A stretch of 64,000 nt of DNA from an uncultured Gammaproteobacteria bacterium (GCA_964544275.1 CAZIZX010000002.1:2056-66055); one strand, 5' to 3'. Shown: positions 1-64,000, counted from the first letter of the stretch. The notes: generated by a model from the letters alone, not told the origin. Program-made: numbers and translations.

Positions 1-2953
1 GAAAGTAAGTATTGTTTGAGAAGGTTTGAGCTCCTGCCCAGGTATTGGCGTTAGCTAGATTGAGGGACAGTTGATTACCAGAGTTGGTGAGGGTGGAGTT
101 GTAGAAGACGGCAATGGTTCGGCCAACACCGGTACCACTGATTGTAATGCCAATGCCAGGAGTTAAAGTGGTTAAAAAGCTACCAGTTTGACCAATACCA
201 ACAAAGCCAGTAGAAGGGATGCCATTGAGGTAGTTGGCATTAAGATTAGTTACCAGATTAGTAGAACCAACAGAGACGAAGGTGGCACCAACAGAGAAGT
301 TGGCATTGGTTCGGACATTAGTAGCAGTAAGACTGATACCAGTACCTAAGATGTTGGTGAGATAAGAGGAATGACCAAAGGTAACGTTACCATTGTTACC
401 CATGAAGAGTGGGGATTTAACAGCAGTGGAAGCAGTTAGGGTATTGCCGACAGAGAGAGAGTTGCTAAAGACAGAGTTACCAGTGACGCCAATACCATTG
501 GAACTGACGAAGAGATTATAGGTAGCATGAGTAGTTCCAATACCGAGTTTAGTGGTGACAGTTTCACCATTAATATGAAGTCTGTAGAGAGGATTGGTGG
601 TGTTAATTCCAACGTTGGAAGCAAAGTAGGCTGTACCGCCAACATTTAAAGTGTTGGTTAAATTGGTTGTGCCACTAATCCCAATGCCATTAGTAAAGGT
701 GTGTAGTCCAGTCCAAACAGGAGTGTAGCCAAGGTTTAACCTAATATCGTGATTGACCAAGGTAATACCAATAGAGGCAGTATAGGTGCCGCCGATGCCT
801 GAGGTATTAGCTGGTATCCAAGAGGTATTACCGGAAGCGTCGGTTTGGAGAATATATCCCGATTGAGCACCTTGGGGGAGAGTGAGGGTGCCGCCGATAT
901 TGAGATTAGTGGTAATGTGAGCATTACCACTAATGTGAAGTTTAGCTTGAGGATTGGTGGTGCCGATACCTAAGTTAGTACCGTCGGCCCAAAGGTTGCT
1001 GGATTCGAGAATGATCTTGCCGGCATTAAAAGTTCTTAGAGTTAAATTACTGGAATTAAAAGGTTCGCCGGCTTGAAGGTAGAGGGGAGCACTGGATTTG
1101 ATATAGGATGCTGTTTGATTAGTAAAAAGTAAGTCATGGGACAGAGAGACATCACCACTGCTAGTAAAGGAAGAAGGCAGATTGAAAGTAGCATTGGTAT
1201 CAGTAATGTCAACCAGAGTGTTACCGGCGGTATCACCAATACGGAGAAGGGAACCGCTGCCGACCAGGTGAAGACGAGAGGTGGGAGAAGTAGTACCTAA
1301 GCCAATATTGTTGAGGAAGTAGGCAGGAGCAGTCCAGGTATTGGTAGAGCCGAGATTGAGTTCGAGAGTATAAGGGCCGGAGCCAGAACGGATGAGGGTG
1401 GAGTTAGTGGCGCTGTTGACAAAAGGAAGATTACTTATGGTGTAACCGGCAAGTTGGTTAGCATTGATAATGCCGGTGCCGGCGAAGGTTAGTGAGGCGC
1501 CGGTGCCAATTGTCATTAGGGCTTGGGTGTTGGTGCCGGTAGTGATACCGGAGAAGGGAACTGAAGAGGCGCCGACACTGCTTGAGGGAGAGACCCAGAT
1601 GGGGGATTGACCAGGTCCGCGGGTTTGAAGGATGTAACCATTGGTACCAGGATTGAGGTTGGTTAGGTTTGATCCATTTCCATAGATAATTGATCCAGTT
1701 GTAGCGTTTAATCCGGCTAATAAATTTAATTCGGAAGCCGAGGAGGTGACGATGGTGCTACCGATTGATATATTTTGAGTGAGTAGGGTGGAACCAACCT
1801 GGAGGTTTCTAAAGACATTGGTATCGCCGTAGGCGTTGACAGAGAAACGGGATTGGAGTTGGGTGGTACCGATATTGAAGTTTTGAAAGTCGATAAAGTT
1901 GTAGCTGCGGTTGGTGTTGCGGATTTCACCCTGAAACAAATTACCTGAAGCTAAATTAGCATTGGAGGCATAGATAAAACCGCCAACTCCGGAAGGGGTG
2001 TTGCCTTCGGTAGTAAGTTTGATGACACCGTTGGCGTCGGGATTAATTTCAATGTTGCCTCCGGAGCCGTCATTGGCTTTGAGTAGTAAAGCTTCGCCTT
2101 TGAGGGCAAATATACCATTATCGGAATAGATGGAGGGACTTTCTTCGCCCAGGTAGATATCACCACTATCACCGATGACTAGCACAGTATTTTTTAGACC
2201 GCTAGCAGATGGAGGGAGACCTTGTAAGGTTTCTGAGTTTAGGGCGTAGGCAACGGTGGCGATTTGCTGGCGTTTGTCCATGGGTTCACCGCCAACGGCG
2301 ATGTCGAGCCAGACTTCGGCGTTTTCGGAAAAAACTTCCGGGGGGATTTCGTCTCCATGGGTCTTGCCGATAATTACCGAGAAGATACCGTTGTCGTCGG
2401 GATGAACGATGGTGCTGCCAATGCCGTTGCCGGTGCCGTAATCAGTCCAAGAATCATAAAGCGGAGGATCACCCATACCGGTAGTGCCGATATCGTAGAG
2501 CTTGAATTGAATGGCGGTGGGAGAGGTTATCGGATTGCCAACCCGGTCGGTGAGACGACCCTGGAAGGAGAGTTGGCGTCCGGGACGGGTCATTTCGGAA
2601 CTGGATGAGTAGGCTAGTTCTTGTTTGGCTTTAAGGTATGTTTGAGTGTAGATACCGACACCGAGGGCAGAAATAATTATGAAAATAAGGGCGCTTAGTA
2701 AATATTTATTAAAATGCCTACCGGGTAGTTTGGAGTCGGGAGTTATAGGATAAGAGGTTTGAGTTGTCGGGTTATAGCTTATAGGTTGAGAGGTGACGGT
2801 TTTGGGTAGGAAAGATTTTTTTTGGAGGAATTTTTTGAAAGAGACGAGAGAAGAAAGTTTTCTTTTGATTGAAGCATCAGATAAGCTCTGAGACTTGAGA
2901 AAGTCTGTATATTTGTTTATTTGATCTTGGTTTAATAGTTGATCAAGTTTCAT
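1..2953 (-). CDS. Giant repetitive cell-surface protein, partial (C-terminus lies beyond window position 1). N-terminal integrase-type SAM-like segment, single TM anchor, then Thr/Gly/Asn/Ser-rich beta-solenoid-like repeats.
   Basis: The reverse frame is open from the ATG (complement of 2951-2953) to position 1. It is missing from the ORF track because its stop codon is outside the window. Translation: MKLDQLLNQDQINKYTDFLKSQSLSDASIKRKLSSLVSFKKFL..., then TM LLSALIFIIISALGVGIYT, then recurring units such as LHISGNAHITTNLNIGG and GYILQT(D/R)xxGxxxW(I/V). Its start overlaps the upstream gene's stop by 11 nt. The + strand ORF 2264..2608 is an antisense shadow. Confidence 0.7.
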   Translation of the reverse strand, partial: MKLDQLLNQDQINKYTDFLKSQSLSDASIKRKLSSLVSFKKFLQKKSFLPKTVTSQPISYNPTTQTSYPITPDSKLPGRHFNKYLLSALIFIIISALGVGIYTQTYLKAKQELAYSSSSEMTRPGRQLSFQGRLTDRVGNPITSPTAIQFKLYDIGTTGMGDPPLYDSWTDYGTGNGIGSTIVHPDDNGIFSVIIGKTHGDEIPPEVFSENAEVWLDIAVGGEPMDKRQQIATVAYALNSETLQGLPPSASGLKNTVLVIGDSGDIYLGEESPSIYSDNGIFALKGEALLLKANDGSGGNIEINPDANGVIKLTTEGNTPSGVGGFIYASNANLASGNLFQGEIRNTNRSYNFIDFQNFNIGTTQLQSRFSVNAYGDTNVFRNLQVGSTLLTQNISIGSTIVTSSASELNLLAGLNATTGSIIYGNGSNLTNLNPGTNGYILQTRGPGQSPIWVSPSSSVGASSVPFSGITTGTNTQALMTIGTGASLTFAGTGIINANQLAGYTISNLPFVNSATNSTLIRSGSGPYTLELNLGSTNTWTAPAYFLNNIGLGTTSPTSRLHLVGSGSLLRIGDTAGNTLVDITDTNATFNLPSSFTSSGDVSLSHDLLFTNQTASYIKSSAPLYLQAGEPFNSSNLTLRTFNAGKIILESSNLWADGTNLGIGTTNPQAKLHISGNAHITTNLNIGGTLTLPQGAQSGYILQTDASGNTSWIPANTSGIGGTYTASIGITLVNHDIRLNLGYTPVWTGLHTFTNGIGISGTTNLTNTLNVGGTAYFASNVGINTTNPLYRLHINGETVTTKLGIGTTHATYNLFVSSNGIGVTGNSVFSNSLSVGNTLTASTAVKSPLFMGNNGNVTFGHSSYLTNILGTGISLTATNVRTNANFSVGATFVSVGSTNLVTNLNANYLNGIPSTGFVGIGQTGSFLTTLTPGIGITISGTGVGRTIAVFYNSTLTNSGNQLSLNLANANTWAGAQTFSNNTYF

Positions 2954-4788: not shown

Positions 4789-7700
4789 CTAATTGAATGA
4801 GACGGCGCCGTTGTTGTAGATGATTTTGATTTGTTCAGAGGTGAGAGGGTAGTTGTAAATGCGGATGTCATCGATTTGGCCGTTGAAGTTTTGGTTATAA
4901 ACCCTGCCAAATGCCGATGCCGCGCTATAATCTTGGATGCCAAGACCGGTGTGTGTGATGTTTTTGTCAAGTTTTCCGTTGATGTAGAACCGGCAGCCCA
5001 CTCCTCCTTCAATAACAAAAGCTACGTGTACCCACTCGTTTGCTGTTATAGAAGAATTTGATTCAGGCCAGTAGTTTACTCCTCCGGTAATATCTCCTAT
5101 CATTAGTCTCAGTCTCCGGTTGCCAGCATTATCCCGTACTTGGAAGTAGTGATAGCCAGCCATATATTGAGAAAATCCGTTAGCAATTGTTCCTGATTCA
5201 TGTGATTTTATCCAGAAGCTTGAGGTCGAAGATCCGTACGAGCCTCCATAGAGTGCCGGGTTATTTAATCCTTTGCCATTGAGGTTTACTTCGTCGTCGA
5301 TTCCATCAAAATTTATGCTGGAGTTTAGTTTTCCGTTTTGGCCATTTCCCCAAGCGGTAGCAGGAATGTCGCAGGTGCCAACACTAACTTGGGTGCCACC
5401 GACACCAACATTGAGGGTGCCGTGATAGTTATTGCCGGAAGAATCATGGATGGTGGTACCCTGACATTCATCTGCTTTCCAGTGAGCAATGGGAGCGCCG
5501 TGGTTATAGTCGTAAGCGATTTGGGCAGGAGTGCGGGCGTAATTGTAGATGCGAACATCGTCAATAGTACCGTTATATGAGTTGTTTTCCCAGACATTAT
5601 TTCCGATGTTTAGTTCATAGGCCCAGTTTCTAAGTCCGTTTTCGAAGTAGTCAGAATCAATATAAATACCATTCAGGAAGAGGGATCCGGTTGAAGTGGT
5701 GGTATCAAAAACGAAAGATGCGTAATACCATTGACCAAAATTTATTGAAGTTGAAGCAGATTCCCATCCACCATTTCCGTTTTGTAGGGTATAGCCAACT
5801 GTTCCGTTGTCGTTTACATTTAGGATAGACACACTACTTCCTCCACTAACCCCAGAACCAAGGAGGCTGGCACTTTTTGTATTTGGTTTAAACCAGACAT
5901 GAGCAGTAAAAGAGGTGTTGTTGCCAATGAAATTAGACATGCTGCTTATGGCTCGAATGTAATTAGAGTCACCGCCGTCAAACTGAACAGCGGCACCATT
6001 ATGGCCGGTGGTCCAAAAAGGGCTGGAGTTGCCGATACCAAAATTTCCATGCCTGTTGTTACCACTGGTGTCAAAAGCAGTAGAGCCAATATTTTCTTCA
6101 AATTTCCATTCAGCTATGGGGGGATCACAGTGAGAAGTATCACCAGGGATACAGTAGTCAAGAGAAGTGGTAGTACCACCGATGTTTTGGGTAGAAGAAC
6201 CCATGACAAAAGCAGAACCCTGATTCATGTCAAGTTTGATTTGGTCTTGAGTGAGAGCATAATCGTAGATTTTGACTTCGTCGAGATAGCCGTAGAGGGA
6301 TTGTTCGGTAATGGTGGAACTGTACCAGGTGTTGCGACCTAATTGGGGTACAATTAGAATATTTTGGTTTGAACGACTAGAGATATCGCTTTGGCCATTC
6401 AGATGACCATTGATAAAAAATTGACCAGTACCGGTGCGATTGGCGACGTAGACAACGTGATACCACCGACCCGGTTCTAGAGTTGAACTAGAATCATGAA
6501 CCCACCCAGTATAGGTGGCGCCGGTGTAACACCGAGCCGATAAGCTTCTTGAAGAATTGATTCCAAATTGAAAACTGTCGGTTGCTCCAGTACTAACAAT
6601 GCCGCCTCGATATGCATCATCGGGAGGGTTTGGCCGGATGTAAATCCAAGTGGAGACTGAGAAATCGGAGGTACCGATTTGAATATTACTTCTGCCTGTG
6701 TGATCTCCATTGCCATTAAAACTTAAAGCTTTACCGAATTTACCTTCTATCCAGGAAGGTGATAAAAGGTTAATGTCGAGACTAGGACCGATGGTGCCAG
6801 AATTTTTGGCAATAGAACCAAAACCGTCGTCAAGACGCCAGTGAGTGATGGGAGGGGAGAGCTGTGAGGTTCCTAGGGGAGAGCCGAGAATAGCCGAAGA
6901 ACCTTTAGATGTAGAAATGCCGGAGAGTCCGTTGTTGTAGTCGGTTAGAATTTGTTGCGGGGTACGGGTGTAGGAATAAATTTTTACTTCGTCAATGAGA
7001 CCGTCAAATTTGTAATTATTAAGGTAAGTGTTGGACCATTGTCCTACTAATATTTTGTCCAACCTAAAGTCTACTTGTTTTGAGAGTGTCCACTCGCCGT
7101 CTTTTTTTCCATTTATAAAAAACGTTACGGAGTTTTGGTTATGTTTATAAATTAATGTTATGTGTGTCCAGGTATTAGCTGTGATGGTATAAGTACTTTG
7201 TTTTGAATTGTATTCTCTTGTTCCATCGGTGTAACCAATTGATATTGAAAATTTGTTTCCATTTTGGTTGATACCAATATTTGAGGTGCTGGAGTGGTTG
7301 TGTGTAGTTAATATGCCGCGTAGGCCACTTGTAATATGTGGGTAGACCCAGGTTGAAAATGTTTGATCACCATTTAATAGAATATTGCCATTACTTCTAG
7401 TGTAATTGTTTGATGTTGAATCAAAATATAAACAATTATTGGATATACAATTTTCTCCAGTTTGCCAAGTGGCGCCAGTAATCGTACCGTGATTGATACC
7501 ACTGGAATCATAAGCTGTAGTTCCCACTCCTTCATCAAATTTCCAGTGAGCAATGGGGGCAGGGGAAAGTTCTTCGGACTGGGGAGTAGATTCGGGATCG
7601 GAAGATGCATATTTTCTCAACCTAACATTGTCAATGTCGATAGAGCAGGTTGTGCCTGGTGACAAATAAATTCTTGTTGGTAGATGTAGAGAGGAGCTTC

Positions 7701-8601
7701 CACTATTAATTGTTTCTGTTTTTTTTGCTAAATAGTTGTTGTTTTCATACACGGAAATACCTGTTGATTCTTGTACAATTTTTGTGTTTACGAAAGTGCC
7801 TCCAGCAGAGATAATAGAATTTGCAATATCAACCCACCCACTAGAATAGTATTGCCATTTATTTGTTGACGATGTTTTTCTTAAATCGAAACCACCAACA
7901 GAAGATTTAAATCCCAAAAGCATTTCTGCTGATGTGCAAGTATTTATTCTGATTTTTAACTCAGTAACTCTAAAGTTATTGAAGGAATTGTTTGACCGGA
8001 GAGTGTTGGAATAATAGTCTGTCGTGCCTAAATATGAGCCGCTTTTATTAAGCACCTGATTTGCTTCTGTGGTAGTAATTGGACTAGCATCATCGTCAAC
8101 AAACCACTTGTCGGTATCTATGGAATTATCATCAAAGTTATCAAAGAGTTCAAAGACCAAGTTGCCATCTTCAACATTAGTAGCTGAGGAATTGCCGTAG
8201 TAAACAAAAATGGTGGTGCCGGAAGAGGGCAGGATGGGGGCTTTAGTCCAGATTTTAGTTTCGGCTTGGCCACAGCCAGGATTACCTTCTTCAATCCAGT
8301 GGGGCAAGAGGCTGCCATTTTGATCAGTAATTCTAATATCGGAGCAGTCATTGTTAAACTTGGTGGTATCAGTAGTATCGAGAGTCAGGGAGACTTGAAA
8401 ATCAGTTAAGTCAGAACCGGAAGAATTATCAATGTTAATAGCCCGTCTAAATCTCCAGGTCTCGTTCCACCATGAAGCTTCAACTAAATTTTGGGGTTTC
8501 TGGGTAATTCTGACTAGAGCAACAATGCCAATTAACAAGAAGACGATAATGGTTAAAAGAGTCTTGTAGGAAAAAGAATTAAGAGAGAACTTTTTTGTCA
8601 T
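4789..8601 (-). CDS. Giant surface protein: N-terminal signal anchor, DUF2341 domain, four LamG/concanavalin-A-like lectin domains
   Basis: 1270 aa. WWNETWRFRRAINIDNS...DIRITDQNGSLLPHWIE is the DUF2341 signature. Four LamG-type C-terminal motifs: LDEVKIYSYTRTPQQI, LDEVKIYDYALTQDQI, IDDVRIYNYARTPAQI, IDDIRIYNYPLTSEQI. A TAAACT hexamer sits 7 nt upstream of the ATG. Confidence 0.85.
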   Translation of the reverse strand: MTKKFSLNSFSYKTLLTIIVFLLIGIVALVRITQKPQNLVEASWWNETWRFRRAINIDNSSGSDLTDFQVSLTLDTTDTTKFNNDCSDIRITDQNGSLLPHWIEEGNPGCGQAETKIWTKAPILPSSGTTIFVYYGNSSATNVEDGNLVFELFDNFDDNSIDTDKWFVDDDASPITTTEANQVLNKSGSYLGTTDYYSNTLRSNNSFNNFRVTELKIRINTCTSAEMLLGFKSSVGGFDLRKTSSTNKWQYYSSGWVDIANSIISAGGTFVNTKIVQESTGISVYENNNYLAKKTETINSGSSSLHLPTRIYLSPGTTCSIDIDNVRLRKYASSDPESTPQSEELSPAPIAHWKFDEGVGTTAYDSSGINHGTITGATWQTGENCISNNCLYFDSTSNNYTRSNGNILLNGDQTFSTWVYPHITSGLRGILTTHNHSSTSNIGINQNGNKFSISIGYTDGTREYNSKQSTYTITANTWTHITLIYKHNQNSVTFFINGKKDGEWTLSKQVDFRLDKILVGQWSNTYLNNYKFDGLIDEVKIYSYTRTPQQILTDYNNGLSGISTSKGSSAILGSPLGTSQLSPPITHWRLDDGFGSIAKNSGTIGPSLDINLLSPSWIEGKFGKALSFNGNGDHTGRSNIQIGTSDFSVSTWIYIRPNPPDDAYRGGIVSTGATDSFQFGINSSRSLSARCYTGATYTGWVHDSSSTLEPGRWYHVVYVANRTGTGQFFINGHLNGQSDISSRSNQNILIVPQLGRNTWYSSTITEQSLYGYLDEVKIYDYALTQDQIKLDMNQGSAFVMGSSTQNIGGTTTSLDYCIPGDTSHCDPPIAEWKFEENIGSTAFDTSGNNRHGNFGIGNSSPFWTTGHNGAAVQFDGGDSNYIRAISSMSNFIGNNTSFTAHVWFKPNTKSASLLGSGVSGGSSVSILNVNDNGTVGYTLQNGNGGWESASTSINFGQWYYASFVFDTTTSTGSLFLNGIYIDSDYFENGLRNWAYELNIGNNVWENNSYNGTIDDVRIYNYARTPAQIAYDYNHGAPIAHWKADECQGTTIHDSSGNNYHGTLNVGVGGTQVSVGTCDIPATAWGNGQNGKLNSSINFDGIDDEVNLNGKGLNNPALYGGSYGSSTSSFWIKSHESGTIANGFSQYMAGYHYFQVRDNAGNRRLRLMIGDITGGVNYWPESNSSITANEWVHVAFVIEGGVGCRFYINGKLDKNITHTGLGIQDYSAASAFGRVYNQNFNGQIDDIRIYNYPLTSEQIKIIYNNGAVSFN

Positions 8602-8621: not shown

Positions 8622-9530
8622 TCAGGGATGGACAGGATAGACTTTGCCATTTATTTCTTCGACAAGATTGTTGAGAGACATTAGTGAGACTTGGATGGAG
8701 AGATCTGAAACCGAGAGGTGAAGGCGAGGGGAGAGCTCGTCTATCGTGAGGGGTTCGGAAGAGACAAGGTCAATAATTTTTTGTTCGAGTGGAGAGAGTG
8801 AGGATGGGGATGAGGGTAGGGAAAGTTGCTTGATGCCGACAATATCCTGAGGAGAAGTTACCAGTTGAGCTTGATTGGTTTTGATGAGTTGGTTGGTACC
8901 GGAAGATAACGAAGAGGTGATAGGGCCAGGGATGCAAAAAAGAGGCTTGTTCTGTTTGAGAGCCAGGCGGGCGGTAATAAGCGAACCGGATTTGTGGTTG
9001 GCTTCGATGATGAGAACGCCTAAAGTGGAAAGGCCGGAAACGATACGATTGCGTTGAGGAAAAGACCAAAGAGTCGGTTTGAAATCAGGCTCGAATTCAG
9101 AAATAATCAGGCCGTTGTTGTCGATAATTTGGGAGAAAAGAGGGTTGTTTTCGGGAGGGTAGGGGTGGTTAAGGCCACTGCCCAGAACGGCGATAGTTTG
9201 GCCCCCGCAGTTTAGAGTTTCCTGATGGGCCAGAGTGTCAATACCGTACATAAATCCGGAAACGATGGTTATATTTTGTTGTATTAGCAGAGGAATGAAT
9301 TGTTTGATAACTTGGTGGCCGTAAGTAGTGGATCGACGGGAACCGACGATGGCAAGAGTATTTTGGAAGAGATTTGGATTGAAAGTCCCGGAATAGTAAA
9401 GTTTTTTAACTTTAGGCTTGATAGTAAGTAAGCTTGAAGGAAAATCGGGGTGGTCAGGGGTAAGGGTGTTAACAGGATAGGTTTTCATAGTGGTTAATAC
9501 GATTAACAGAATTGTCCTGATTGAGGACAA
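8622..9530 (-). CDS. dprA: DNA processing protein DprA (Smf)
   Basis: ..LAIVGSRRSTTYGHQVIKQF..IVSGFMYGIDTLAHQETL..AVLGSGLNHPYPPEN is the DprA Rossmann-like core. The start may instead be the internal Met (MKTYPV) at 9488. Confidence 0.85.
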   Translation of the reverse strand: MSSIRTILLIVLTTMKTYPVNTLTPDHPDFPSSLLTIKPKVKKLYYSGTFNPNLFQNTLAIVGSRRSTTYGHQVIKQFIPLLIQQNITIVSGFMYGIDTLAHQETLNCGGQTIAVLGSGLNHPYPPENNPLFSQIIDNNGLIISEFEPDFKPTLWSFPQRNRIVSGLSTLGVLIIEANHKSGSLITARLALKQNKPLFCIPGPITSSLSSGTNQLIKTNQAQLVTSPQDIVGIKQLSLPSSPSSLSPLEQKIIDLVSSEPLTIDELSPRLHLSVSDLSIQVSLMSLNNLVEEINGKVYPVHP

Positions 9531-9834
9531 TGCAGACAGCGTCGAGGCGGAAGCGGGAATAAGAAAGAGGGTGTGTCTGGATGAAACTTTGGGCAGTCTT
9601 TTGAATTTGTTTAATTTTGGAGGTAGAGATCATGTCTTCCGGGTTGCCAAAGTGGGAACCGATTTTGAGCTTGACTTCAACGAAGACGAGAGTATCTGAA
9701 TCTATCATTATCAGGTCAATTTCACCAAAACGGGTGTGGAAATTGTGATCGAGCGGTTGGAAACCTTTTTGGATTAAGAAATTTTGGGCAAGGGATTCGC
9801 CAAGTTTACCTTTGGAATAGTTTTGCTGTTTCAT
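9469..9834 (-). CDS. yraN: YraN-family (UPF0102) endonuclease
   Basis: 121 aa. ..AQNFLIQKGFQPLDHNFHTRFGEIDLIMIDSDTLVFVEVK.. is the UPF0102 pattern. Overlaps the comM stop (ATGA). Confidence 0.8.
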   Translation of the reverse strand: MKQQNYSKGKLGESLAQNFLIQKGFQPLDHNFHTRFGEIDLIMIDSDTLVFVEVKLKIGSHFGNPEDMISTSKIKQIQKTAQSFIQTHPLSYSRFRLDAVCIVLNQDNSVNRINHYENLSC

Positions 9835-27945: not shown

Positions 27946-28006
27946 GGGTATCAAAGAGGGATACTGGCGGGAACTTGAGAAGACAAGCTTTTGGACCAGT
28001 ACCTAG

Positions 28007-46950: not shown

Positions 46951-46974
46951 AATTTTTTTAGTTTTAATAAATAA

Positions 46975-47493: not shown

Positions 47494-47504
47494 ATTTTTT
47501 GAAT

Positions 47505-47600
47505 TAAAAAACCTCGCCTGAAGGAGCGAGGTGTAAATAACAATTTAGCTGTATTTGCCTCGGTAGGTAGCTTCGACCCAGTGGGTACCTACGGTCTTCG
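47505..47600 (-). promoter_or_regulatory. Structured rplJ leader region (two stem-loops), possible L10-L12 autoregulatory/attenuator element
   Basis: On the minus strand: hairpin CCTCGC-n8-GCGAGG (47512-47531) followed by UUUUU, immediately 5' of the rplJ start. A second stem GTAGGTA...TACCTAC at about 47565-47595. Confidence 0.3.
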
Positions 47601-47649
47601 GTTAAAGGATAGGGAGATTATACAGACAAACGGGAAAAGTATCAAGACC

Positions 47650-54592: not shown

Positions 54593-55336
54593 CTAGAGAG
54601 CGACTTTGATGGCAGGACCCATAGTAGCTTTGAGAGCCAGTTTTTTGATTTTGGTCGATCCGATTACTTTGATTAGTTCTTCCACGTTGGCCTCGAGTTC
54701 TGTTGCCGGTTGAGCGACTTCACCGGTAACAATGTGAATAACGGGAGCTTTTTTTTCAGTTTTGAGAGAAGTTTTGGCAACAGAAAGCTTCTGGACGGCT
54801 GTTTTGGGATCGTCGGTTAAGGTGCCGCTTTTGGGATTGGGCATAAGACCTTTGGGGCCCAGTACACGGGCGAAGGGTAATAATTTAGGCATGGTGGCTG
54901 GAGTAGCGATTAAAACATCAAACTCGATACGACCATCTTTGATGGCGGCTAAAACCAAGTCATCGAGGACGGCAATTTTTTTGGTGGCTGTTTTCAGATG
55001 AGGGAAAGTGATATCGCCAATTGTTCCCATGCCGGAGACAGTAATGTGGGCCTCGATTTTGCCGCCAAATTTGGCGTAGGAAGTTTCCTTTACCAGGCTG
55101 ATAGCTTCGGAGAGAGGATAATACTTATTAATATCCACTTTGGCTTTGACTGTCTGGTACTTTTTACTTCTGACCTTGACGGTTTTAGTGGTGGTTTGGG
55201 TGGATTCAGGAGCTTCGACAGTTTGACTGGTTGAAGTTTCCTGAGTGTCGCGAACAGTGCCAGCTGACTGCTCTTCCACTAGTTTTTGCTCTTGACGAGC
55301 TTTTTTGGCTTTGTTTTCTTGAGTGGTTTTGCTCAT
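54593..55336 (-). CDS. rplA: 50S ribosomal protein L1 (with ~70-aa low-complexity N-terminal extension)
   Basis: ..KFGGKIEAHITVSGMG..DVLIATPATMPKLLPFARVLGPKGLMPNPKSGTLTDDP.. Lys/Gln/Thr-rich N-terminal extension. Confidence 0.9.
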   Translation of the reverse strand: MSKTTQENKAKKARQEQKLVEEQSAGTVRDTQETSTSQTVEAPESTQTTTKTVKVRSKKYQTVKAKVDINKYYPLSEAISLVKETSYAKFGGKIEAHITVSGMGTIGDITFPHLKTATKKIAVLDDLVLAAIKDGRIEFDVLIATPATMPKLLPFARVLGPKGLMPNPKSGTLTDDPKTAVQKLSVAKTSLKTEKKAPVIHIVTGEVAQPATELEANVEELIKVIGSTKIKKLALKATMGPAIKVAL

Positions 55337-55356
55337 ATTTTTTTAAATTGTTAAAT

Positions 55357-55782
55357 TTATTCAGTGATTTCGATGCCCATGGAACGGGCAGTGCCCATAA
55401 CGGTGTTTTTGGCCGCTTCTAGATCCTTGGTATTCATATCAATGATCTTGTCGCTGGCAATTTGCTCTACCTGGGCCATGGTTAGTTTGCCAACCTTTTC
55501 CCGACCTGCGGTTTGAGCGCCTTTGGAGAGACCGGCCATTTTTTTGATAGTGTCGGAAACGGGTGGTTTTTTGATGATGAAATCGAAAGAGCGGTCTTCG
55601 TAGATAGTAATGAGGGAGGGTATCAATGAACCTCGCATGTTTTTGGTTTTTTCATTGAACTCGTTGCAGAAGTCCATGATTTTGATACCGTGGGGCCCGA
55701 GAGCGGTGCCAACCGGAGGAGCCGGATTAGCACTACCAGCAGGAAGGGCAATTTTGACTATGGTTTTGATTTTTTTGGCCAT
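55357..55782 (-). CDS. rplK: 50S ribosomal protein L11
   Basis: MAKKIKTIVKIALPAGSANPAPPVGTALGPHGIKIMDFCNEFN.. (141 aa). The ORF-track entry 55357..56094 extends upstream in-frame, but that part overlaps nusG in another frame. The L11 start is 1 nt after the nusG stop. Confidence 0.9.
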   Translation of the reverse strand: MAKKIKTIVKIALPAGSANPAPPVGTALGPHGIKIMDFCNEFNEKTKNMRGSLIPSLITIYEDRSFDFIIKKPPVSDTIKKMAGLSKGAQTAGREKVGKLTMAQVEQIASDKIIDMNTKDLEAAKNTVMGTARSMGIEITE

Positions 55783-55783
55783 T

Positions 55784-56380
55784 TTATAATTCTTTGGTAA
55801 CTTGTAAAAAGTCGAGTTCAACTGGAGTTTCCCGCTCGAAGAAGGAAACCAGACAGCGAATTTTGCCTTTTTCCTGATCAATTGAGTCGATAGTACCAAT
55901 AAAGTCAGCAAAAGGACCATTGGTAATTTTGACGACATCGCCAATAGCGAAGGGGGTTTGATATTTGGGTTTTTCCTCTTCGACGGTCTTGATAATGGTG
56001 TCAACTTCTTTTTGGGAAATGGGGGAGGGTTGGTTGCCAATGCCGACAAAGCCGGTAACTCCCTGGGTGGTTCTGACGGTGATCCAAGAGTCATCGGTTA
56101 AGGCCATTTGAATCAAAACGTAACCGGGGAAAGTTTTTTCCTGGGTTTTGACCTTTTGGCCACGACGGATAACCATTTTGCTTTGGATAGGAACGATGGC
56201 CTGAAAAATTTTGTCTTCCAGGTTCATGGTTTTGATGCGGGTTTTGAGGGCGTCAATAACTTTGTATTCGTGACCGGAATAAGTGTTGATCACATACCAG
56301 GCGGCATCAAACTTCGGCTCTTTACTAGAGAGCTTGAATAAAAATTCCTTTTTTTTGGTTTTATTTGACGTATTGGGCAT
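55784..56380 (-). CDS. nusG: Transcription termination/antitermination factor NusG
   Basis: Start at MPNTSNK (complement of 56378-56380), 1 nt after the secE stop. NGN domain ..WYVINTYSGHEYKV.. KOW ..FAIGDVVKITNGPFADFIGTI.. Confidence 0.9.
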   Translation of the reverse strand: MPNTSNKTKKKEFLFKLSSKEPKFDAAWYVINTYSGHEYKVIDALKTRIKTMNLEDKIFQAIVPIQSKMVIRRGQKVKTQEKTFPGYVLIQMALTDDSWITVRTTQGVTGFVGIGNQPSPISQKEVDTIIKTVEEEKPKYQTPFAIGDVVKITNGPFADFIGTIDSIDQEKGKIRCLVSFFERETPVELDFLQVTKEL

Positions 56381-56381
56381 A

Positions 56382-56672
56382 TTAGTTGTTGATATCTGAT
56401 GATTGAGTTGATTCCGGAGAGCTGTTTTCCGGAGAATCCGGTTCAGATATAGTTTCGGGTTCGAGTTCTGTTGTCGGGGTGGTTTGATTGATGCCACCCA
56501 AAAGAGCAATTGAATTAGTAAATAAGTAATCGAAACCTCCTAAAATTAGGGAAGTTATGATCGAGATTGATATTACCACAACTGAAAGCTGAATTAAAGT
56601 ATCTTTTTTGGGCCAGGAGATGTTTTTGAATTCGGCCTTGACTTCGTTGTAAAAACGGATGAGTTTTTGCAT
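56382..56672 (-). CDS. secE: Preprotein translocase subunit SecE
   Basis: 96 aa. ..EVKAEFKNISWPKKDTLIQLSVVVISISIITSLILGGFDY.. is the SecE pattern (K-x-V-x-W-P + one TM). TATAAT lies 6 nt before the ATG. Confidence 0.75.
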   Translation of the reverse strand: MQKLIRFYNEVKAEFKNISWPKKDTLIQLSVVVISISIITSLILGGFDYLFTNSIALLGGINQTTPTTELEPETISEPDSPENSSPESTQSSDINN

Positions 56673-56874: not shown

Positions 56875-57321
56875 ATGTTATGTCCTTATTGTGGTTTTGA
56901 CGAGTCGAATGTACTGGAGAGTCGGGATGCTCAGGAAGGGAAGGCGACCCGAAGGCGGAGGGAATGCCTAAAGTGCAATAAAAGATTTACGACTTATGAA
57001 AAAACGGGAAATATTGAACTGAGGGTAGTCAAAAAGGATGGTCGGATAGAGGATTATTCCAGGGAAAAGCTGGAAAAGTGTTTTGATAAAGCCTGCTGGA
57101 AGTTGTCAACCGAAGAAAGAAGTCGAATGATAGACGAAGTTGAAAAGAGACTTTTGAATTGGGAAAAAGTAGAGATACCCAGCCGGGAGATTGGCCTGAT
57201 GGTGATGGAGATGATTAAAGATATTGATCCGGTGGCTTATATTCGGTTTGCTACGGTTTATCTGGATATCAAATCGATTGAAGATTTCAGTAATTTATTA
57301 GTTGAATTTCAAAACAAATAA
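56875..57321 (+). CDS. nrdR: Transcriptional repressor NrdR (Zn-ribbon + ATP-cone)
   Basis: MLCPYCG..CLKCNKRFTTYE.. is the zinc ribbon. The ATP-cone follows. Stop overlaps the nrdJ start (TAATG). Confidence 0.9.
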   Translation: MLCPYCGFDESNVLESRDAQEGKATRRRRECLKCNKRFTTYEKTGNIELRVVKKDGRIEDYSREKLEKCFDKACWKLSTEERSRMIDEVEKRLLNWEKVEIPSREIGLMVMEMIKDIDPVAYIRFATVYLDIKSIEDFSNLLVEFQNK

Positions 57322-59849
57322 TGACTGACATTAGAATGTTATCAAGCAGGGATAACTTAAAAGAGGGCTTACCCGAGGTAAAGATATCGGAAAATGCCCG
57401 ATATATTGCCGAAAGCAGGTATGCCATGAAAGACAGTGAAGGCAGAGCTACCGAAAAGGTTGACGATATTTATTGGAGGGTAGCCAGTAACATAGCTAAA
57501 GCTGACGGGGTGTTTAATAAGAATGATGGTCAGGTAAATGATTTGGCGGTTAGTTTTTTTGGGTTGATGGCGGAACAAAAATTTTTTCCCAATACACCGT
57601 GTCTGGTGAATGCAGGTAAGGAAAATCAGCAATTATCGGCTTGTTTTGTGCTGCCGATAGAGGATTCAATGAAGTCTATTTTGGAGACGATGTCAGATAT
57701 GGCCATGATTCATAAAAGCGGAGGAGGGACGGGGTTTTCATTTTCGCGACTGAGACCTTATGGGGATTATATAAAAACTAGTGGTGGAACGACGGTGGGT
57801 CCGGTGTCGTTTATGCAGGCTTATAACGATGTGACCTCGCAGATTAAGCAAGGTGGGGTGAGAAGAGGGGCGAATATGGGAATGCTGTCGATTGAACACC
57901 CGGACGTACTGAGGTTTGCGGTGGTCAAATTGGATGAGTATAGCTTGACTAACTTCAACATATCGTTGGCGGTGACTAATAAGTTTATGGAAAAAATTGA
58001 GGGGGACAAAAAGTTTGTGGCGGATGATTCGGTACCGGAGGGGACGGTTGAGTTTATTCGAGAAGCGGAACAGAATCGGGATGTAGATATGAAGTTGAGG
58101 CAAATAGAGGAAGGAGTGGCTAAATTATATGAGTGGGCGGAAGCCAAGAGTGAGGGTGAAGGATATGAGTTGATTAACCCTAGAGATGGAAAAGTGACTA
58201 TGAGGTTGAATGCTTATAAGGTATTTAATTTGATTACCAGGTTGGCCTGGCAATATGGTGATCCGGGATTGGTGTTTATTGACAGGATGAATGACGAAAG
58301 GTCGAATCCGGTGATAAAGTTGGGGAAAATTGAAGCCACAAATCCGTGCGGGGAACAACCGTTGTTGCCTTATGATGCCTGTAATTTGGGTAGTTTAAAC
58401 CTGGCTAAATTTGTAACAGGCGAGGGTAGAGTGGATTGGGATGATTTGGCGAAAACAACCAGGCAGGCAGTTCATTTTTTGGATAATGTGGTGGAGACGA
58501 ATCAGTTTCCGGTGGAGAAGATTGGGGAAACGGTTAGGAAATTTCGGAGGATCGGGTTGGGGGTGATGGGGTTTGCCGATATGCTGTTTAAGTTGGGGGT
58601 TAAATATGATTCAGACGAGGGTTTGGAATGGGCGGGAAAGATAATGAAATTTATCGATGAAAAGGCCAGAGAAGCAACGGCGGAATTAGGAAGGGAAAGA
58701 GGGGTGTTTCCAGCTTGGGAGGAGAGTGTGTTTGCGGGAACTGATTATCGACCAAGAAATATGGCCCTAACGACGATTGCGCCAACCGGAACAATCAGCA
58801 TGATTGCCGATACCAGCAGTGGAATAGAACCGGTTTTTTCGCTGGCTTATCAAAAAAATACGGTTGAAGGCAAGGTACTTTATAATGTCAACCCGGTTCT
58901 GGTGGAAGTGTTGAAGAAGCGAAATTTGTATGACGAAAAGTTAATTGAGAAAATTGTGGCCAATGGTGGGGTGCTGGGTGGGTTAACAGAGGTGCCGGAT
59001 GATATTAAAAAAGTTTTTGTGAGTGCTCTGGAGATTTCACCTGAGTGGCACGTTAAAATTCAGGCGGCTTTTCAGAAACATGTGGACAATGCGGTGTCCA
59101 AGACGATAAATTTCCCCAAAGAAGCGAGAGTAGAAGACGTGCGAGAGGCGTATTTACAAGCGTATACTTTGGGGACTAAAGGTATAACAATATATCGTAC
59201 TGGATCAAGAGAAAAGGAAATTTTGCAGAAAGTGAAAACGGGGGACAAGAACAAGGAAGCAGGGGGTGAGGGTAACGGTAAGTCGAATTGGCATTTGGCT
59301 AAGAAGAAAAGTACGCCGAGTATTGCCAATGGGGTGCGGGTGAAGAAGGGCTGTGACATGGGGAATGTTTACACTTCGGTGTTTTTTGAGGAGGGAGACG
59401 GGCCGGTGGAAGTGTTTGTGACTTTGGGTAAAAGTGGCGGGTATATGGCCGGAGCGGCCGAAGTAACAGGCAGATTGGCTTCGTTGGCATTGAAATATGG
59501 GGCCAGTTTGAATGAGGTAGCTGAAGAAATGGTAGGAATATCATGTGGACAAAGAGTAGGGTTGGGCAGCAATGCGGTTTTGAGTATGTTTGATGCAGTA
59601 GGGAAATCGATTTTGGAGATTTGGAGGGGGGAGCAGTTGGACTTATTTGGCGCAGAGGAGGGAGCGAATAAGGTTAACTCGGCACCAACCCTAAATCTGG
59701 AGGCGGATATGTTATCGGAAATCAGGACCAAATTAGCTGATACTGAGAGTAAATTCAGTTCCTGTCCGGATTGTGGTAGTCCGCTGTATGCGGAAGAGGG
59801 ATGTTTTAAATGTTCAAACAGTTTTTGCGGTTACAGCAAGTGTAGTTAA
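57321..59849 (+). CDS. nrdJ: Class II (adenosylcobalamin-dependent) ribonucleotide reductase NrdJ
   Basis: 842 aa. ..FFPNTPCLVNAG..LSACFVLPIEDSM.., active-site NPCGEQPL, C-terminal Cys cluster CPDCG..CFKCSNSFCGYSKCS. Confidence 0.9.
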   Translation: MTDIRMLSSRDNLKEGLPEVKISENARYIAESRYAMKDSEGRATEKVDDIYWRVASNIAKADGVFNKNDGQVNDLAVSFFGLMAEQKFFPNTPCLVNAGKENQQLSACFVLPIEDSMKSILETMSDMAMIHKSGGGTGFSFSRLRPYGDYIKTSGGTTVGPVSFMQAYNDVTSQIKQGGVRRGANMGMLSIEHPDVLRFAVVKLDEYSLTNFNISLAVTNKFMEKIEGDKKFVADDSVPEGTVEFIREAEQNRDVDMKLRQIEEGVAKLYEWAEAKSEGEGYELINPRDGKVTMRLNAYKVFNLITRLAWQYGDPGLVFIDRMNDERSNPVIKLGKIEATNPCGEQPLLPYDACNLGSLNLAKFVTGEGRVDWDDLAKTTRQAVHFLDNVVETNQFPVEKIGETVRKFRRIGLGVMGFADMLFKLGVKYDSDEGLEWAGKIMKFIDEKAREATAELGRERGVFPAWEESVFAGTDYRPRNMALTTIAPTGTISMIADTSSGIEPVFSLAYQKNTVEGKVLYNVNPVLVEVLKKRNLYDEKLIEKIVANGGVLGGLTEVPDDIKKVFVSALEISPEWHVKIQAAFQKHVDNAVSKTINFPKEARVEDVREAYLQAYTLGTKGITIYRTGSREKEILQKVKTGDKNKEAGGEGNGKSNWHLAKKKSTPSIANGVRVKKGCDMGNVYTSVFFEEGDGPVEVFVTLGKSGGYMAGAAEVTGRLASLALKYGASLNEVAEEMVGISCGQRVGLGSNAVLSMFDAVGKSILEIWRGEQLDLFGAEEGANKVNSAPTLNLEADMLSEIRTKLADTESKFSSCPDCGSPLYAEEGCFKCSNSFCGYSKCS

Positions 59850-59851
59850 TT

Positions 59852-60328: not shown

Positions 60329-60335
60329 TTAAAAA

Positions 60336-63151: not shown

Positions 63152-64000
63152 TTAAATTTTACGGTCGGGAAGGGTGGAGAGTTCTTTTTGCCAATTTGGC
63201 AGTCCGCACCACTGATGTTTTGCTTCGGGGCAAGGTGGAATCAGACCGACCTGGCGGCGGATAGCGCAGGGAGTTGGCTGATTAAAATAAGTACCAAGGA
63301 GAGAGTCGTATTGTTGGAGTTGGCGAAGCATTTCTAAGTTAAGACGCCAAATTTCTTCTTGGGCACGATAACAAGATCTGACAGCAGCAAAATGATAAAG
63401 AGTGCCAATTGGTGCTTTAATTTGCTTGGCAATAAGGGTGTTGTTGGTGGCCAGATATTCTGTTAAGGATGGATCGACACCCATATCTATAAGTTTGGTG
63501 CGGGATTTGGTGGCAAAGTCAGAAAGTCGGTGATATAAGTCTAGGGCTTCTTGATTTTCGGTAATTATGGGAGGGATATAGTAATCGTTTTCTTTGGTCG
63601 GAATGGGAATAGATCTATGGGGAGTGTGGGAAAAGCCGCGGTGGCGTTGTAATTGCGCATCGGCAGAAAGGCTGAGTCGGATAAGGAAGCCAGCGGTGGC
63701 GTTGTTTAGCGTTTGAGAAAATTGATCCAGAACAATCTCACCGTCAACCGAAGCAAGATACGAGTTGTTGGTTGGATTTAGAACACAGTCAAGTGCTTGG
63801 GAATCAGACATTTGAGATGGAGGATAACCCAAATGAAGACGGATGGCATTGGCGATTTGTTGACTAGGTTTGATATCAGGGGTTTCAAGCTTAATATTGC
63901 CACTATTTAGTTGATTAGTAATCACGGATTCAAATGCCACGTGATTCGGGGAGCCGAATCTTTTAATGGCTTTGGTTGCGGGTGAATTTTGAGGCAGGGG
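63152..64000 (-). CDS. Hypothetical protein, partial (N-terminus beyond window end)
   Basis: The reverse frame is open from 64000 down to the stop at 63152, with no stop in 63941-64000. The ORF-track start (GTG at 63940) is probably internal. No family recognised. Confidence 0.45.
   Translation of the reverse strand, partial: PLPQNSPATKAIKRFGSPNHVAFESVITNQLNSGNIKLETPDIKPSQQIANAIRLHLGYPPSQMSDSQALDCVLNPTNNSYLASVDGEIVLDQFSQTLNNATAGFLIRLSLSADAQLQRHRGFSHTPHRSIPIPTKENDYYIPPIITENQEALDLYHRLSDFATKSRTKLIDMGVDPSLTEYLATNNTLIAKQIKAPIGTLYHFAAVRSCYRAQEEIWRLNLEMLRQLQQYDSLLGTYFNQPTPCAIRRQVGLIPPCPEAKHQWCGLPNWQKELSTLPDRKI

Follow-up and report, generated by a model that had tools for sequence, protein, structure and literature searches.

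In almost all cellular genomes the amounts of G and C are approximately equal within a single strand. Only one of 17,873 complete genomes departs obviously from this strand parity, that of Candidatus Chazhemtobacterium aquaticus Ch65 (PMC11514846), one strand of which contains 29.83% C and 14.97% G over 801,504 bp, a skew of 0.33 (PMC7143001). The cumulative skew of Ch65 is monotonic and is not accompanied by an AT trend (AT skew about −0.01), its genes are divided between the two strands as 449 and 389, its rRNA genes lie on the C-rich strand, and unidirectional replication has been proposed for this organism (PMC7143001). Weaker disparity is described in the same work for Collierbacteria (MFAS01000001; 0.135) and Beckwithbacteria (CP011210; 0.155) (Microgenomatia order UBA1400; Kadnikov et al. 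2020, PMC7143001).

The stretch of DNA analysed here (the window; 64,000 nt) is a further and stronger case of the disparity seen in Ch65, a phenomenon that the preliminary description of this DNA had treated as new but that was published in 2020 for sister lineages (PMC7143001). Ch65 belongs to the Microgenomates group, as the window probably does, and the two are similar in GC content (44.8% versus 43.9%), in combining a large G/C disparity with nearly equal A and T, in the near-even split of genes between strands, and in the location of translation-apparatus genes on the C-rich strand (rRNA in Ch65; rplKAJL, nusG, secE, and two tRNAs in the window). The window is the more extreme of the two, exceeding even the parity outlier of PMC11514846 (0.383 over 64 kb versus 0.33 genome-wide in Ch65, with Collierbacteria and Beckwithbacteria far lower), and it comes from a different lineage, its named relatives being nearly all Shapirobacteria, which are absent from PMC7143001. 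The window is likely to be an ordinary segment of a Shapirobacteria-related chromosome carrying a lineage-wide, mutation-driven strand asymmetry that is made up of two biases and is of the same kind as in Ch65.

An exact count of the + strand gives 19,445 G, 8,674 C, 18,429 A, and 17,452 T (30.4%, 13.6%, 28.8%, and 27.3%, respectively), corresponding to a G/C ratio of 2.2 on one strand, whichever direction the genes read, with a GC skew of +0.383, an AT skew of +0.027, and a GC content of 43.9%. The preliminary description, which had placed G at about twice C and the skew near +0.35, was close to these values, and the measured skew is well above the floor of about 0.1 named there; its GC estimate of about 47% was too high. 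The excess of G over C amounts to 64 binomial standard deviations, and 59.2% of the + strand across the whole window is purine. GC skew is positive in all 2-kb bins (range 0.16 to 0.56) and is zero or below in only 2 of 636 windows of 500 bp, the low 500-bp values all falling in a gene encoding a LamG-domain protein (4789-8601, −) and in rplL. No sign change in GC skew occurs across positions 1..64000, and the skew is monotonic through the window plus 4 kb from a further record (L085), with a slight weakening of the asymmetry in the last quarter of the window. The genes and RNAs of the window that bear on the asymmetry are as follows.

4789..8601, − strand: 1270-aa surface protein with LamG and DUF2341 domains; overall skew 0.13, with stretches near zero
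8622..9530, − strand: DprA; sense strand is the C-rich strand; skew at codon positions 1, 2, and 3 of −0.21, −0.49, and −0.61
9831..11366, − strand: ComM; sense strand is the C-rich strand; third-position GC skew −0.67
15348..17987, + strand: pyruvate phosphate dikinase; sense strand is the G-rich strand; third-position GC skew +0.54
23655..26105, + strand: LeuRS; sense strand is the G-rich strand; coding-strand third-position GC skew +0.56
27871..28080, − strand: tRNA-Arg(CCU) and tRNA-Pro(CGG), both on the − strand
46543..47619, − strand: rplL, rplJ, and the L10 leader, all on the C-rich strand
54593..56672, − strand: secE, nusG, rplK, and rplA, all on the C-rich strand; third-position GC skew −0.41 to −0.47
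57321..59849, + strand: ribonucleotide reductase; sense strand is the G-rich strand; third-position GC skew +0.55

The earlier suggestion that the ribosomal genes are the least skewed holds for rplL (overall skew 0.04, the lowest in the window), rplK (0.16), and rplA (0.19), but not for rplJ (0.34), and the surface-protein gene is equally low (0.13). The near-zero skew in the surface-protein gene is due to amino-acid content, with a skew of +0.33 at codon position 1 while position 3 is still at −0.60. Similarly, it is mainly the abundance of G at first codon positions that lowers the skew of the ribosomal genes, and at third positions it remains −0.47 to −0.67 (−0.47 in rplL, despite its having the lowest overall skew).

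Nearly every one of the best LeuRS and ComM homologues with a named source is labelled Candidatus Shapirobacteria or Patescibacteria group, and the Shapirobacteria and Ch65 lineages both fall within the NCBI 'Microgenomates group'. Judging by these homologues, the host is probably an uncultured Shapirobacteria-related Microgenomates bacterium (Patescibacteria/CPR). In 50 other bacterial LeuRS loci the strand-linked third-position skew has a median of 0.09 and a 90th percentile of 0.20 and peaks at 0.35, whereas in the window it is 0.60, in keeping with the earlier statement that the skew is far beyond ordinary replication skew. The LeuRS regions of six Shapirobacteria relatives (L003, L004, L005, L090, L092, and L094) have locus-wide skews of 0.18-0.40, and LeuRS is on the G-rich strand in all six of those examined. 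A sister lineage has skews of 0.32 (L084) and 0.26 (L098), with a sign that is constant in record coordinates over 56 kb of one contig. In these sequences the asymmetry is lineage-wide in Shapirobacteria and a sister lineage, which extends the trait to a large, widespread clade. In one Shapirobacteria genome (a record of 1,117,440 bp), the strand-linked third-position skew is 0.28 at 0.98 Mb and 0.02 at 0.30 Mb, with no reversal, and in two other species the skew of the ComM region is below that of the LeuRS region (0.31 versus 0.66 and 0.34 versus 0.55). Along these chromosomes the asymmetry therefore varies, in contrast to the near-linear cumulative curve reported for Ch65; a single polarity extends over the whole Ch65 chromosome, whereas two regions of the relatives can vary strongly. 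No region of negative skew was found in any relative when the sequences were oriented by conserved genes.

To our knowledge, replication is the only process that distinguishes the two strands over tens of kilobases independently of transcription, and the same strand therefore presumably keeps the same replication role over long distances. In all known bacteria the G-rich strand is the leading strand. If this also applies here, the translation genes of the window (rplK, rplA, rplJ, rplL, nusG, secE, and the two tRNAs), all of which are read on the C-rich (−) strand, should be oriented head-on to replication, as should the rRNA operon in Ch65, an arrangement that would be unusual. The alternative that survives best, although it is on balance unlikely, is that this is the ordinary skew of a bidirectionally replicated chromosome with two replichores, only larger, the window lying inside one replichore, the sign reversing at an origin and a terminus elsewhere, and the mode of replication being in no way unusual. 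A stretch of 64 kb is too short to reveal such a switch, the drop from 0.28 to 0.02 between 0.98 and 0.30 Mb in the Shapirobacteria record would fit either a switch or a broad termination zone, and the transition asymmetry described below matches that of Firmicute loci in direction and size. However, cumulative skew is monotonic in the closed genomes of Ch65, Collierbacteria, and Beckwithbacteria (PMC7143001), the relatives oriented by conserved genes contain no negative region, and a gene distribution of about 57:43 with the translation genes on the C-rich strand is not normal for a strongly skewed two-replichore genome. It is possible, and is proposed here only tentatively, that in Shapirobacteria and related Microgenomates the fork travels in one fixed direction over most of the small chromosome (unidirectional replication or strand displacement), and that these bacteria additionally have a lineage-specific, strand-asymmetric transversion process (e.g., a replicase error bias, or missing repair of oxidative damage or abasic sites). 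If so, a fixed fork and a transversion process together would produce the strongest violation of strand parity known in cellular genomes, and either highly expressed translation genes would be head-on or the leading strand would be C-rich, opposite to every characterised bacterium. Such genomes offer a natural system for studying replication organisation in unculturable bacteria with tiny genomes.

The low-GC Firmicutes have strong GC skew with an excess of purines (G+A) on the leading strand. Firmicute comparator loci (L014, L022, L027, and L028) resemble the window in having G > C and A >= T on the same strand and a similar transition asymmetry at two-fold sites, but their strand-linked third-position GC skew is at most 0.35 (0.60 in the window) and their orientation-averaged purine fraction at four-fold sites at most 0.59 (0.73 in the window). 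The Firmicute-type co-orientation of genes with the purine-rich strand (>70%) is also not seen in the window, where the G-rich strand carries 57% of coding sequence. No polymerase gene, such as one for the PolC replicase of Firmicutes, lies within the window. At two-fold sites, where only transitions are synonymous, C/(C+T) on the + strand is 0.21-0.23 and G/(G+A) is 0.50-0.53, with agreement between the two gene orientations at 0.23/0.21 and 0.53/0.51, respectively, an asymmetry comparable to that of the Firmicute comparator loci. The purine fraction of the + strand at four-fold sites is 0.67/0.78, and the orientation-averaged fraction is 0.64-0.73 in the window, L003-L005, and L084, compared with no more than 0.59 in ten comparator loci. 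On the G-rich strand T is not in excess of A; the strand-linked third-position AT skew of the window and of four relatives lies between +0.07 and +0.15.

The asymmetry is thus two superimposed biases, a transition asymmetry of ordinary Firmicute size and an unusual transversion bias from pyrimidines to purines, both read from equilibrium composition, which cannot tell which substitutions are biased. On the G-rich strand, the transition bias would move the C/T balance towards T and the A/G balance towards G, while an unusually strong pyrimidine-to-purine transversion bias would act on the same strand, such that one physical strand would keep losing C and gaining G whatever it encodes. The two effects would add for G versus C and largely cancel for A versus T, and would thereby lead to a very large GC skew and a nearly absent AT skew. 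The transversion bias could stem from asymmetric polymerase errors, from the lack of a repair activity, or from a pool of damaged nucleotides. Comparison with a 99.8% identical strain yielded 37 SNPs (18 C/T, 17 A/G, and 2 transversions), and no pattern was found in the 15 of these 37 that could be polarised.

A transversion component places the trait beyond the reach of deamination models, which bears directly on the proposal, built on the preliminary description's example of a single-strand-biased deaminase or repair defect, that a single-stranded DNA deaminase or the loss of uracil repair on one strand could by itself give the skew. The transition-only sites do carry the signature expected of such a process, with C/(C+T) of 0.22 versus G/(G+A) of 0.52 on the G-rich strand. 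The proposal nevertheless predicts an excess of T over A that matches the excess of G over C (16.8% of bases), whereas the measured T−A is −1.5%. Transitions, the outcome of deamination (C>T, A>G), do not alter how much of a strand is purine; since the + strand is purine-rich (59.2% overall and 67-78% at four-fold sites), a deaminase cannot be the whole cause. In addition, the transition asymmetry is no greater than in the Firmicute comparator loci, a UDG-family gene occurs in a relative (L097, 16199-16864), and no DNA deaminase gene was seen in the window. The earlier notion of an unusual mutational regime stands, but deamination as its sole agent is improbable. Vertebrate mitochondrial DNA has a GC skew between heavy and light strands of about 0.3-0.4, with one polarity over the whole molecule and independent of gene orientation. 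The window is comparable in the size of its GC skew and in this independence, but in mitochondria transitions predominate (C>T and A>G on the displaced strand), and a strong AT skew and a positional gradient accompany the asymmetry, whereas the AT skew of the window is near zero and its asymmetry declines only weakly, in the last quarter.

Several properties of the window show that the bias follows the strand rather than the genes. Measured on the coding strand, third-position GC skew is +0.56 for + genes and −0.61 for − genes, a difference whose absence the preliminary description would have counted against its own claim, and when third positions are read on the + strand the two sets agree (G3 of 0.36 in + genes and 0.378 in − genes; C3 of 0.101 and 0.093), as the earlier claim of independence from gene orientation implies. 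Coding sequence is split about 57:43 (+:−); a greedy set of open reading frames places 42% on the − strand, or approximately 43-44% once a frame running off the left end is included, which bears out the 45% estimated previously. Intergenic DNA (9.7 kb) has a GC skew of 0.384 and an AT skew of +0.04, and skew is largest at four-fold sites (0.58/0.74) and smallest at codon position 2. The matching G3 and C3 values in both orientations, the intergenic skew, and the four-fold sites together indicate that the asymmetry resides in the DNA strand itself and is mutational; gene orientation or selection is not its driver. The idea that transcription or selection makes the skew, through purine loading of mRNA, codon preference, or selection on protein composition, can draw on a small A/T orientation effect (T > A at coding-strand third positions in + and − genes alike) and on the resistance of conserved ribosomal-protein genes to skew at codon position 1. 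It is, however, highly improbable as the source of the G/C skew and was ruled out by the third-position, intergenic, and orientation data, given that the orientation component of third-position skew is only about −0.02, that intergenic skew equals the window average, and that skew is greatest at four-fold sites and least at position 2. An assembly or sequencing artefact, or a rolling-circle plasmid or phage as the origin of the window, was dismissed as having a negligible chance of being correct, no supporting evidence having been found: two SRA runs yielded the sequence in independent assemblies (SRR27370451, 99.8% identical; SRR8925753, 99.9-100% identical), it is part of an NCBI MAG contig of 201,521 bp, its reading frames are intact and Pfam-recognisable, its content is that of a chromosome (e.g., LeuRS, ribosomal proteins, Mur enzymes, MreB, RuvABC, and ribonucleotide reductase), and the same bias is present in relatives from JGI, ENA, NCBI, and Logan.

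Strand-specific codon and amino-acid usage was reportedly described in Borrelia burgdorferi, Treponema pallidum, and Buchnera by McInerney in 1998 and by Lafay et al. and Rocha et al. in 1999. As in those bacteria, where a replication-strand mutational bias divides the proteome into two compositional classes according to coding strand, amino-acid usage in the window shifts by strand as the nucleotide bias predicts, both across window genes and in ComM and DprA orthologues. The three earlier cases differ in having a sign switch at origin and terminus and a leading strand rich in G+T, whereas in the window the effect is larger and A/T asymmetry is nearly absent. The products of + genes contain more Glu (8.7% versus 3.4%) and Met (3.1% versus 0.9%) and less Gln (2.0% versus 4.7%) and Thr (4.3% versus 8.1%) than those of − genes, and the contrast holds when only Pfam-recognised housekeeping genes are considered (chi-square 363, p about 1e-65), bearing out the view that coding strand shapes the proteome; the two peptides quoted in support of that view were located at 19468-19560 (−) and 43885-43995 (+). 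This strand-linked composition arises because non-synonymous sites are affected too, genes on the G-rich strand giving proteins richer in Glu, Gly, Val, Arg, Met, and Trp, and genes on the C-rich strand giving proteins richer in Gln, Thr, Ser, Pro, His, and Asn. In such genomes, coding strand will be a source of bias for gene finders, for binning by composition, for growth predictors based on codon usage, and for phylogenetic models, and the same genomes provide a natural system for asking to what extent mutation bias on its own can shape proteomes. The ComM of the window is 70-72% identical to three Shapirobacteria orthologues that lie on the opposite strand, and these sequences constitute a natural experiment on the effect of coding strand, in which composition differs as predicted, as it also does for DprA. 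Even at this level of identity the effect is visible, with G, E, V, R, D, M, and W summing to 27-28% of ComM when the sense strand is C-rich and 33-34% when it is the other strand. The corresponding sums for DprA are 20-21% and 27-37%, and Q, T, S, P, H, and N jointly account for 42% of DprA in the window and 24-30% in the orthologues on the other strand.

Exact base counts across the window (G 19,445, C 8,674, A 18,429, T 17,452; 43.9% GC) give a GC skew, (G-C)/(G+C), of +0.383 and an AT skew of +0.027, with the excess of G above C amounting to 64 binomial standard deviations. The asymmetry put forward from hand counts in the preliminary description (G about twice C, a skew of about 0.35) is fully confirmed, its size having been slightly underestimated and the GC content (47%) placed a little too high. 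All 2-kb bins are positive (range 0.16 to 0.56), and at the 500-bp scale 2 of 636 windows lie at zero or below, values under 0.1 being confined to rplL or to the LamG-domain gene for a 1270-aa surface protein (4789-8601, minus strand). Third-position skew has a positional slope of -0.026 per 10 kb (p = 0.01); this gradient was dropped as evidence because it stems from the group of housekeeping and ribosomal-protein genes that fills the final quarter of the window. The same DNA was assembled independently in SRR27370451 (a 27-kb contig, 99.8% identical) and in SRR8925753 (99.9-100% identical), and a protein 100% identical to one from the window occurs on a 201,521-bp NCBI contig. The skew is not an artefact and the DNA is chromosomal, with ordinary housekeeping genes recognized by Pfam on both strands:

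Genes and RNA features of the window
8622-9530, minus strand, DprA (Pfam)
9831-11366, minus strand, ComM (Pfam)
23655-26105, plus strand, LeuRS (Pfam)
Plus strand, other Pfam genes: PPDK, M16 peptidase, MreB, RuvC, RuvA, RuvB, Ddl, NrdR, ribonucleotide reductase, ComEA/ComEC
Minus strand, other Pfam genes: MurB, Mur ligase, rplL, rplJ, rplA, rplK, nusG, secE, ThyX
Minus strand, RNA features (Rfam, ARAGORN): two tRNAs and an L10 leader
Plus strand, RNA feature (Rfam, ARAGORN): AdoCbl riboswitch

The gene set used for composition comprises 55 greedily chosen non-overlapping ORFs (31.7 kb on the plus strand and 22.6 kb on the minus strand), the minus-strand total being further raised by an ORF that extends past the left end of the window. 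The 2.2 kb at that end, which lacked an ORF and had been considered as an RNA gene, gave nothing in Rfam at E <= 0.1 and is a minus-strand ORF continuing beyond the window (frame open for at least 799 codons in 1-2400, past the left edge). Coding-strand skew differs between the two orientations at every codon position:

Coding-strand GC skew by codon position
Position 1: plus genes +0.58; minus genes +0.03
Position 2: plus genes +0.09; minus genes -0.36
Position 3: plus genes +0.56; minus genes -0.61

When third positions are read on the plus strand, base frequencies are nearly the same for plus genes (G 0.360, C 0.101) and minus genes (G 0.378, C 0.093), so that the G/C asymmetry has essentially no orientation component (-0.02), in agreement with the earlier claim that it is independent of gene orientation. 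In the 9.7 kb of intergenic DNA the skew is 0.384, and four-fold degenerate sites reach 0.58 in plus genes and 0.74 in minus genes. The gradient from four-fold sites through intergenic DNA to position 2 reflects mutation pressure opposed by selection, rather than selection favoring the skew. The earlier interpretation is borne out in part, the bias being a mutational regime tied to the DNA strand and felt in protein composition.

Products of plus-strand genes are enriched in Glu, Met, Trp, Arg, Val, Gly, and Cys, and those of minus-strand genes in Gln, Thr, His, Ser, Pro, Asn, and Ile. The strand-linked composition described earlier is borne out when only Pfam-recognized housekeeping genes are counted (Glu 9.5% on plus versus 5.1% on minus; Gln 2.2% versus 5.3%; chi-square 363, p about 1e-65). 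A natural experiment without functional confounding is provided by ComM and DprA. Their sense strand is the C-rich one in the window and the sister-lineage locus L098, and the opposite one in loci L095-L097 of three Shapirobacteria species; for DprA it is also the opposite one in the more distant relatives L087 and L088. The ComM proteins of the window and of the three Shapirobacteria are 70-72% identical, and their compositions follow the strand:

Composition of ComM and DprA by sense strand
ComM, G+E+V+R+D+M+W: C-rich 27-28%; other 33-34%
ComM, Q+T+S+P+H+N: C-rich 33%; other 25%
ComM, position 1 skew: C-rich 0.02; other 0.43-0.48
DprA, G+E+V+R+D+M+W: C-rich 20-21%; other 27-37%

The ComM-DprA block is an old relocation with inversion that now shows full compositional re-equilibration, its third positions being skewed at -0.61 to -0.67. 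This comparison is more telling than that of the highly conserved LeuRS with 77 other bacteria, in which Glu, Val, and Met are raised and Gln and Thr lowered as predicted, by a modest 1-1.5 standard deviations. Ribosomal-protein genes, singled out earlier as the least skewed, do resist at position 1; their third positions are still skewed at -0.47 to -0.67, so that the earlier remark holds only in part.

As to the kind of mutational bias, the single-strand deaminase suggested in the preliminary description fails as a sole cause: transitions (C/T, A/G) leave the purine fraction of a strand unchanged, and pure deamination therefore predicts an excess of T over A equal to that of G over C (16.8% of bases), whereas T-A is -1.5% and the plus strand is 59.2% purine. 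The components can be separated at two-fold sites, where synonymous changes are transitions only, and at four-fold sites, which were used for transversions. At two-fold sites, C/(C+T) on the plus strand is 0.23 in plus genes and 0.21 in minus genes, and G/(G+A) is 0.53 and 0.51, respectively; the agreement of both orientations shows that transitions are truly strand-asymmetric, about 3.5-fold versus about 1. At four-fold sites, the plus-strand purine fraction is 0.67 in plus genes and 0.78 in minus genes, and the mean of 0.725 implies that pyrimidine-to-purine transversions exceed the reverse about 2.6-fold on this strand. Both components are present in the related loci L003-L005 and L084 (mean purine fraction 0.64-0.73). 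Ten comparator loci have mean purine fractions of at most 0.59, although a transition asymmetry like that of the window occurs in Firmicute loci. From equilibrium composition, we infer a two-component mutational bias in which the transition and transversion biases would act together on the balance of G and C and against each other on that of A and T, which would account for the great size of the GC skew and the near absence of an AT skew.

Direct differences from near-identical strains are few. Comparison with two Logan contigs (L001 and L085; 99.8% identity) gave 37 SNPs (18 C/T, 17 A/G, 1 G/T, and 1 A/C), of which the 15 that could be polarized with the outgroup L084 (70-79% identical) form no pattern; the full set of 37, with 35 transitions and 2 transversions, is too small to test the two-component account. 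Differences from the SRR27370451 strain (99.8%) are clustered, with 8 within 86 bp (46441-46526; the DUF1846 gene at its 3' end, plus adjoining intergenic DNA) and 9 inside the Mur ligase gene over a span of 358 bp (52056-52413), which suggests short recombination tracts. In A/T-flanked trinucleotides, C depletion appears greater in TC than in AC contexts, an observation set aside as confounded by codon structure and neighbor-base skew.

The best GTDB species-representative matches to LeuRS are three Candidatus Shapirobacteria MAGs (62-67% identity), and the top source-named LeuRS and ComM matches in a search of 5.8 billion proteins are nearly all Candidatus Shapirobacteria or 'Patescibacteria group bacterium', with exceptions among the ComM matches (a few labeled Woesebacteria and one Methanoperedens). 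A metagenome scan with DUF1846 yielded two usable relatives only. Locus-wide skew was calculated with each locus oriented by the conserved query gene, and strand-linked GC3 skew as the mean over plus and minus genes, which removes orientation effects:

GC skew in the window and in relatives (locus-wide; strand-linked GC3 where given)
Window: GC3 0.60
L003, Shapirobacteria LeuRS region: 0.30; GC3 0.54
L004, Shapirobacteria LeuRS region: 0.375; GC3 0.60
L005, Shapirobacteria LeuRS region: 0.32; GC3 0.55
L090, Shapirobacteria LeuRS region: 0.18
L092, Shapirobacteria LeuRS region: 0.40
L094, Shapirobacteria LeuRS region: 0.31
L084, closest sister lineage (JGI Ga0591959_0000049): 0.32; GC3 0.43
L098, closest sister lineage (JGI Ga0591959_0000049): 0.26
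L087, more distant relative: 0.27
L088, more distant relative: 0.23
50 other bacterial LeuRS loci: GC3 median 0.09, 90th percentile 0.20, maximum 0.35

L084 and L098 have the same skew sign in record coordinates across 56 kb. The trait is a property of the clade and not of a single genome, and describing it as far beyond ordinary replication skew was justified (0.60 in the window versus a maximum of 0.35 in the 50 comparator loci). Within the Microgenomates, Ch65 and Shapirobacteria such as LEMO22-1 are strongly skewed, Ga0395526, Collierbacteria, and Beckwithbacteria weakly so, and CP011212 is unskewed.

Exactly this phenomenon was reported by Kadnikov et al. 2020 for Ca. Chazhemtobacterium aquaticus Ch65 (801,504 bp, closed; Microgenomates order UBA1400), one strand of which contains 29.83% C, 14.97% G (skew 0.33), 27.87% A, and 27.33% T, with near-linear cumulative skew over the entire chromosome, 449 versus 389 genes per strand, and the rRNA genes on the C-rich strand (PMC7143001). 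Weaker versions were described in Collierbacteria (0.135) and Beckwithbacteria (0.155), and none in a PJMF01 genome (PMC7143001). In a 2024 survey of 17,873 complete genomes, Ch65 stands out as the obvious outlier to strand parity (PMC11514846). Within the library of papers searched, none explains the mechanism or describes the trait in Shapirobacteria; Beckwithbacteria, Collierbacteria, and Shapirobacteria are absent from the supplementary files holding the 'rolling-circle' list of Chen et al. 2020 (PMC7111523, Table S7), the first entries of which are Actinobacteria. The window is thus no new discovery; it is a somewhat stronger case (0.383 versus 0.33 for the whole Ch65 chromosome) of a phenomenon already published for sister lineages, and the same two-bias account presumably applies to Ch65. 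This extreme trait is now open to testing through near-complete relatives, among them JGI 3300040998 Ga0395526_000001 (1,117,440 bp), ENA ERZ28596294 LEMO22-1 scaffold_1 (906,714 bp), and NCBI JAQWEN010000001.1 (735,491 bp).

The 64-kb window contains no origin or terminus marker. When set beside comparator loci whose leading strand is evident from the co-orientation of their genes, the transition asymmetry runs in a direction that points to the G-rich strand as the leading one. The two tRNAs and the secE-nusG-rplK-rplA and rplJ-rplL genes would then be head-on to replication, as is the Ch65 rRNA operon; otherwise the polarity would be reversed in this lineage, and either would be unusual. Strand-linked third-position skew is much weaker in uvrABC-ComM-DprA regions than in LeuRS regions of Shapirobacteria (0.31 in L095 versus 0.66 in L092; 0.34 in L096 versus 0.55 in L094), which indicates that the asymmetry is uneven along their chromosomes. 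This contrast is a conserved regional difference accounted for by no model tested. In a 1,117,440-bp Shapirobacteria record (JGI Ga0395526_000001), a two-point sampling of one near-complete genome gave 0.28 at 0.98 Mb (L090, 976-999 kb) and 0.02 at 0.30 Mb (L097, 291-313 kb), with both loci in the same orientation. A nearby switch point, forks that do not always run the same way, or a fairly recent rearrangement might lie behind the unevenness, and in view of it an ordinary two-replichore model has some probability for the Shapirobacteria clade, though less than even.

Several features of gene arrangement were also observed. Two paralogous 138-aa Big_1-domain proteins (4351-4767, plus; 11411-11827, minus) are tail-to-tail neighbors in Shapirobacteria (L004 653-1389; L005) and are split in the window by a 6.6-kb minus-strand block encoding the LamG protein, DprA, and ComM; in Shapirobacteria, ComM-UPF0102-DprA adjoins uvrABC on the other strand, and the region listed with this relocation in the sister lineage is L098 9503-17175. 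Beside the surface-protein genes, a 208-aa ORF (2943-3569, minus) that matches only N-terminal SAM-like phage-integrase domains and lacks the catalytic domain may be a mobile-element remnant. The usually contiguous secE-nusG-rplK-rplA-rplJ-rplL cluster is broken (46543-47619 and 54593-56672, minus) by about 7 kb encoding unrelated Ddl, Mur ligase, methyltransferase, hydrolase, and a 495-aa unknown protein, and no rpoB or rpoC follows rplL in the window; the sister-lineage locus L084 has the same split. A 981-aa protein (39871-42816, plus) without a Pfam match has as homologues at E <= 1e-10, among 5.8 billion proteins, itself and one sister-lineage sequence (43% identical), and a metagenome scan with it found nothing; the gene is very fast-evolving and lineage-restricted, inside an otherwise conserved syntenic block. 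The ThyX ORF (63152-64000, minus) leaves the right edge and may encode a fusion, since its product in L085, at 544 aa, is roughly double an ordinary ThyX; it is followed just outside the window by dcd, tmk, and glyA. An AdoCbl-II (B12) riboswitch (60321-60397, plus) lies directly after a Cob_adeno_trans gene (59852-60328), with NrdR and ribonucleotide reductase immediately upstream (neighborhood 56875-61313, plus), and just ahead of a 300-aa ORF without a Pfam match (60411-61313) that may encode a B12-regulated transporter or binding protein.
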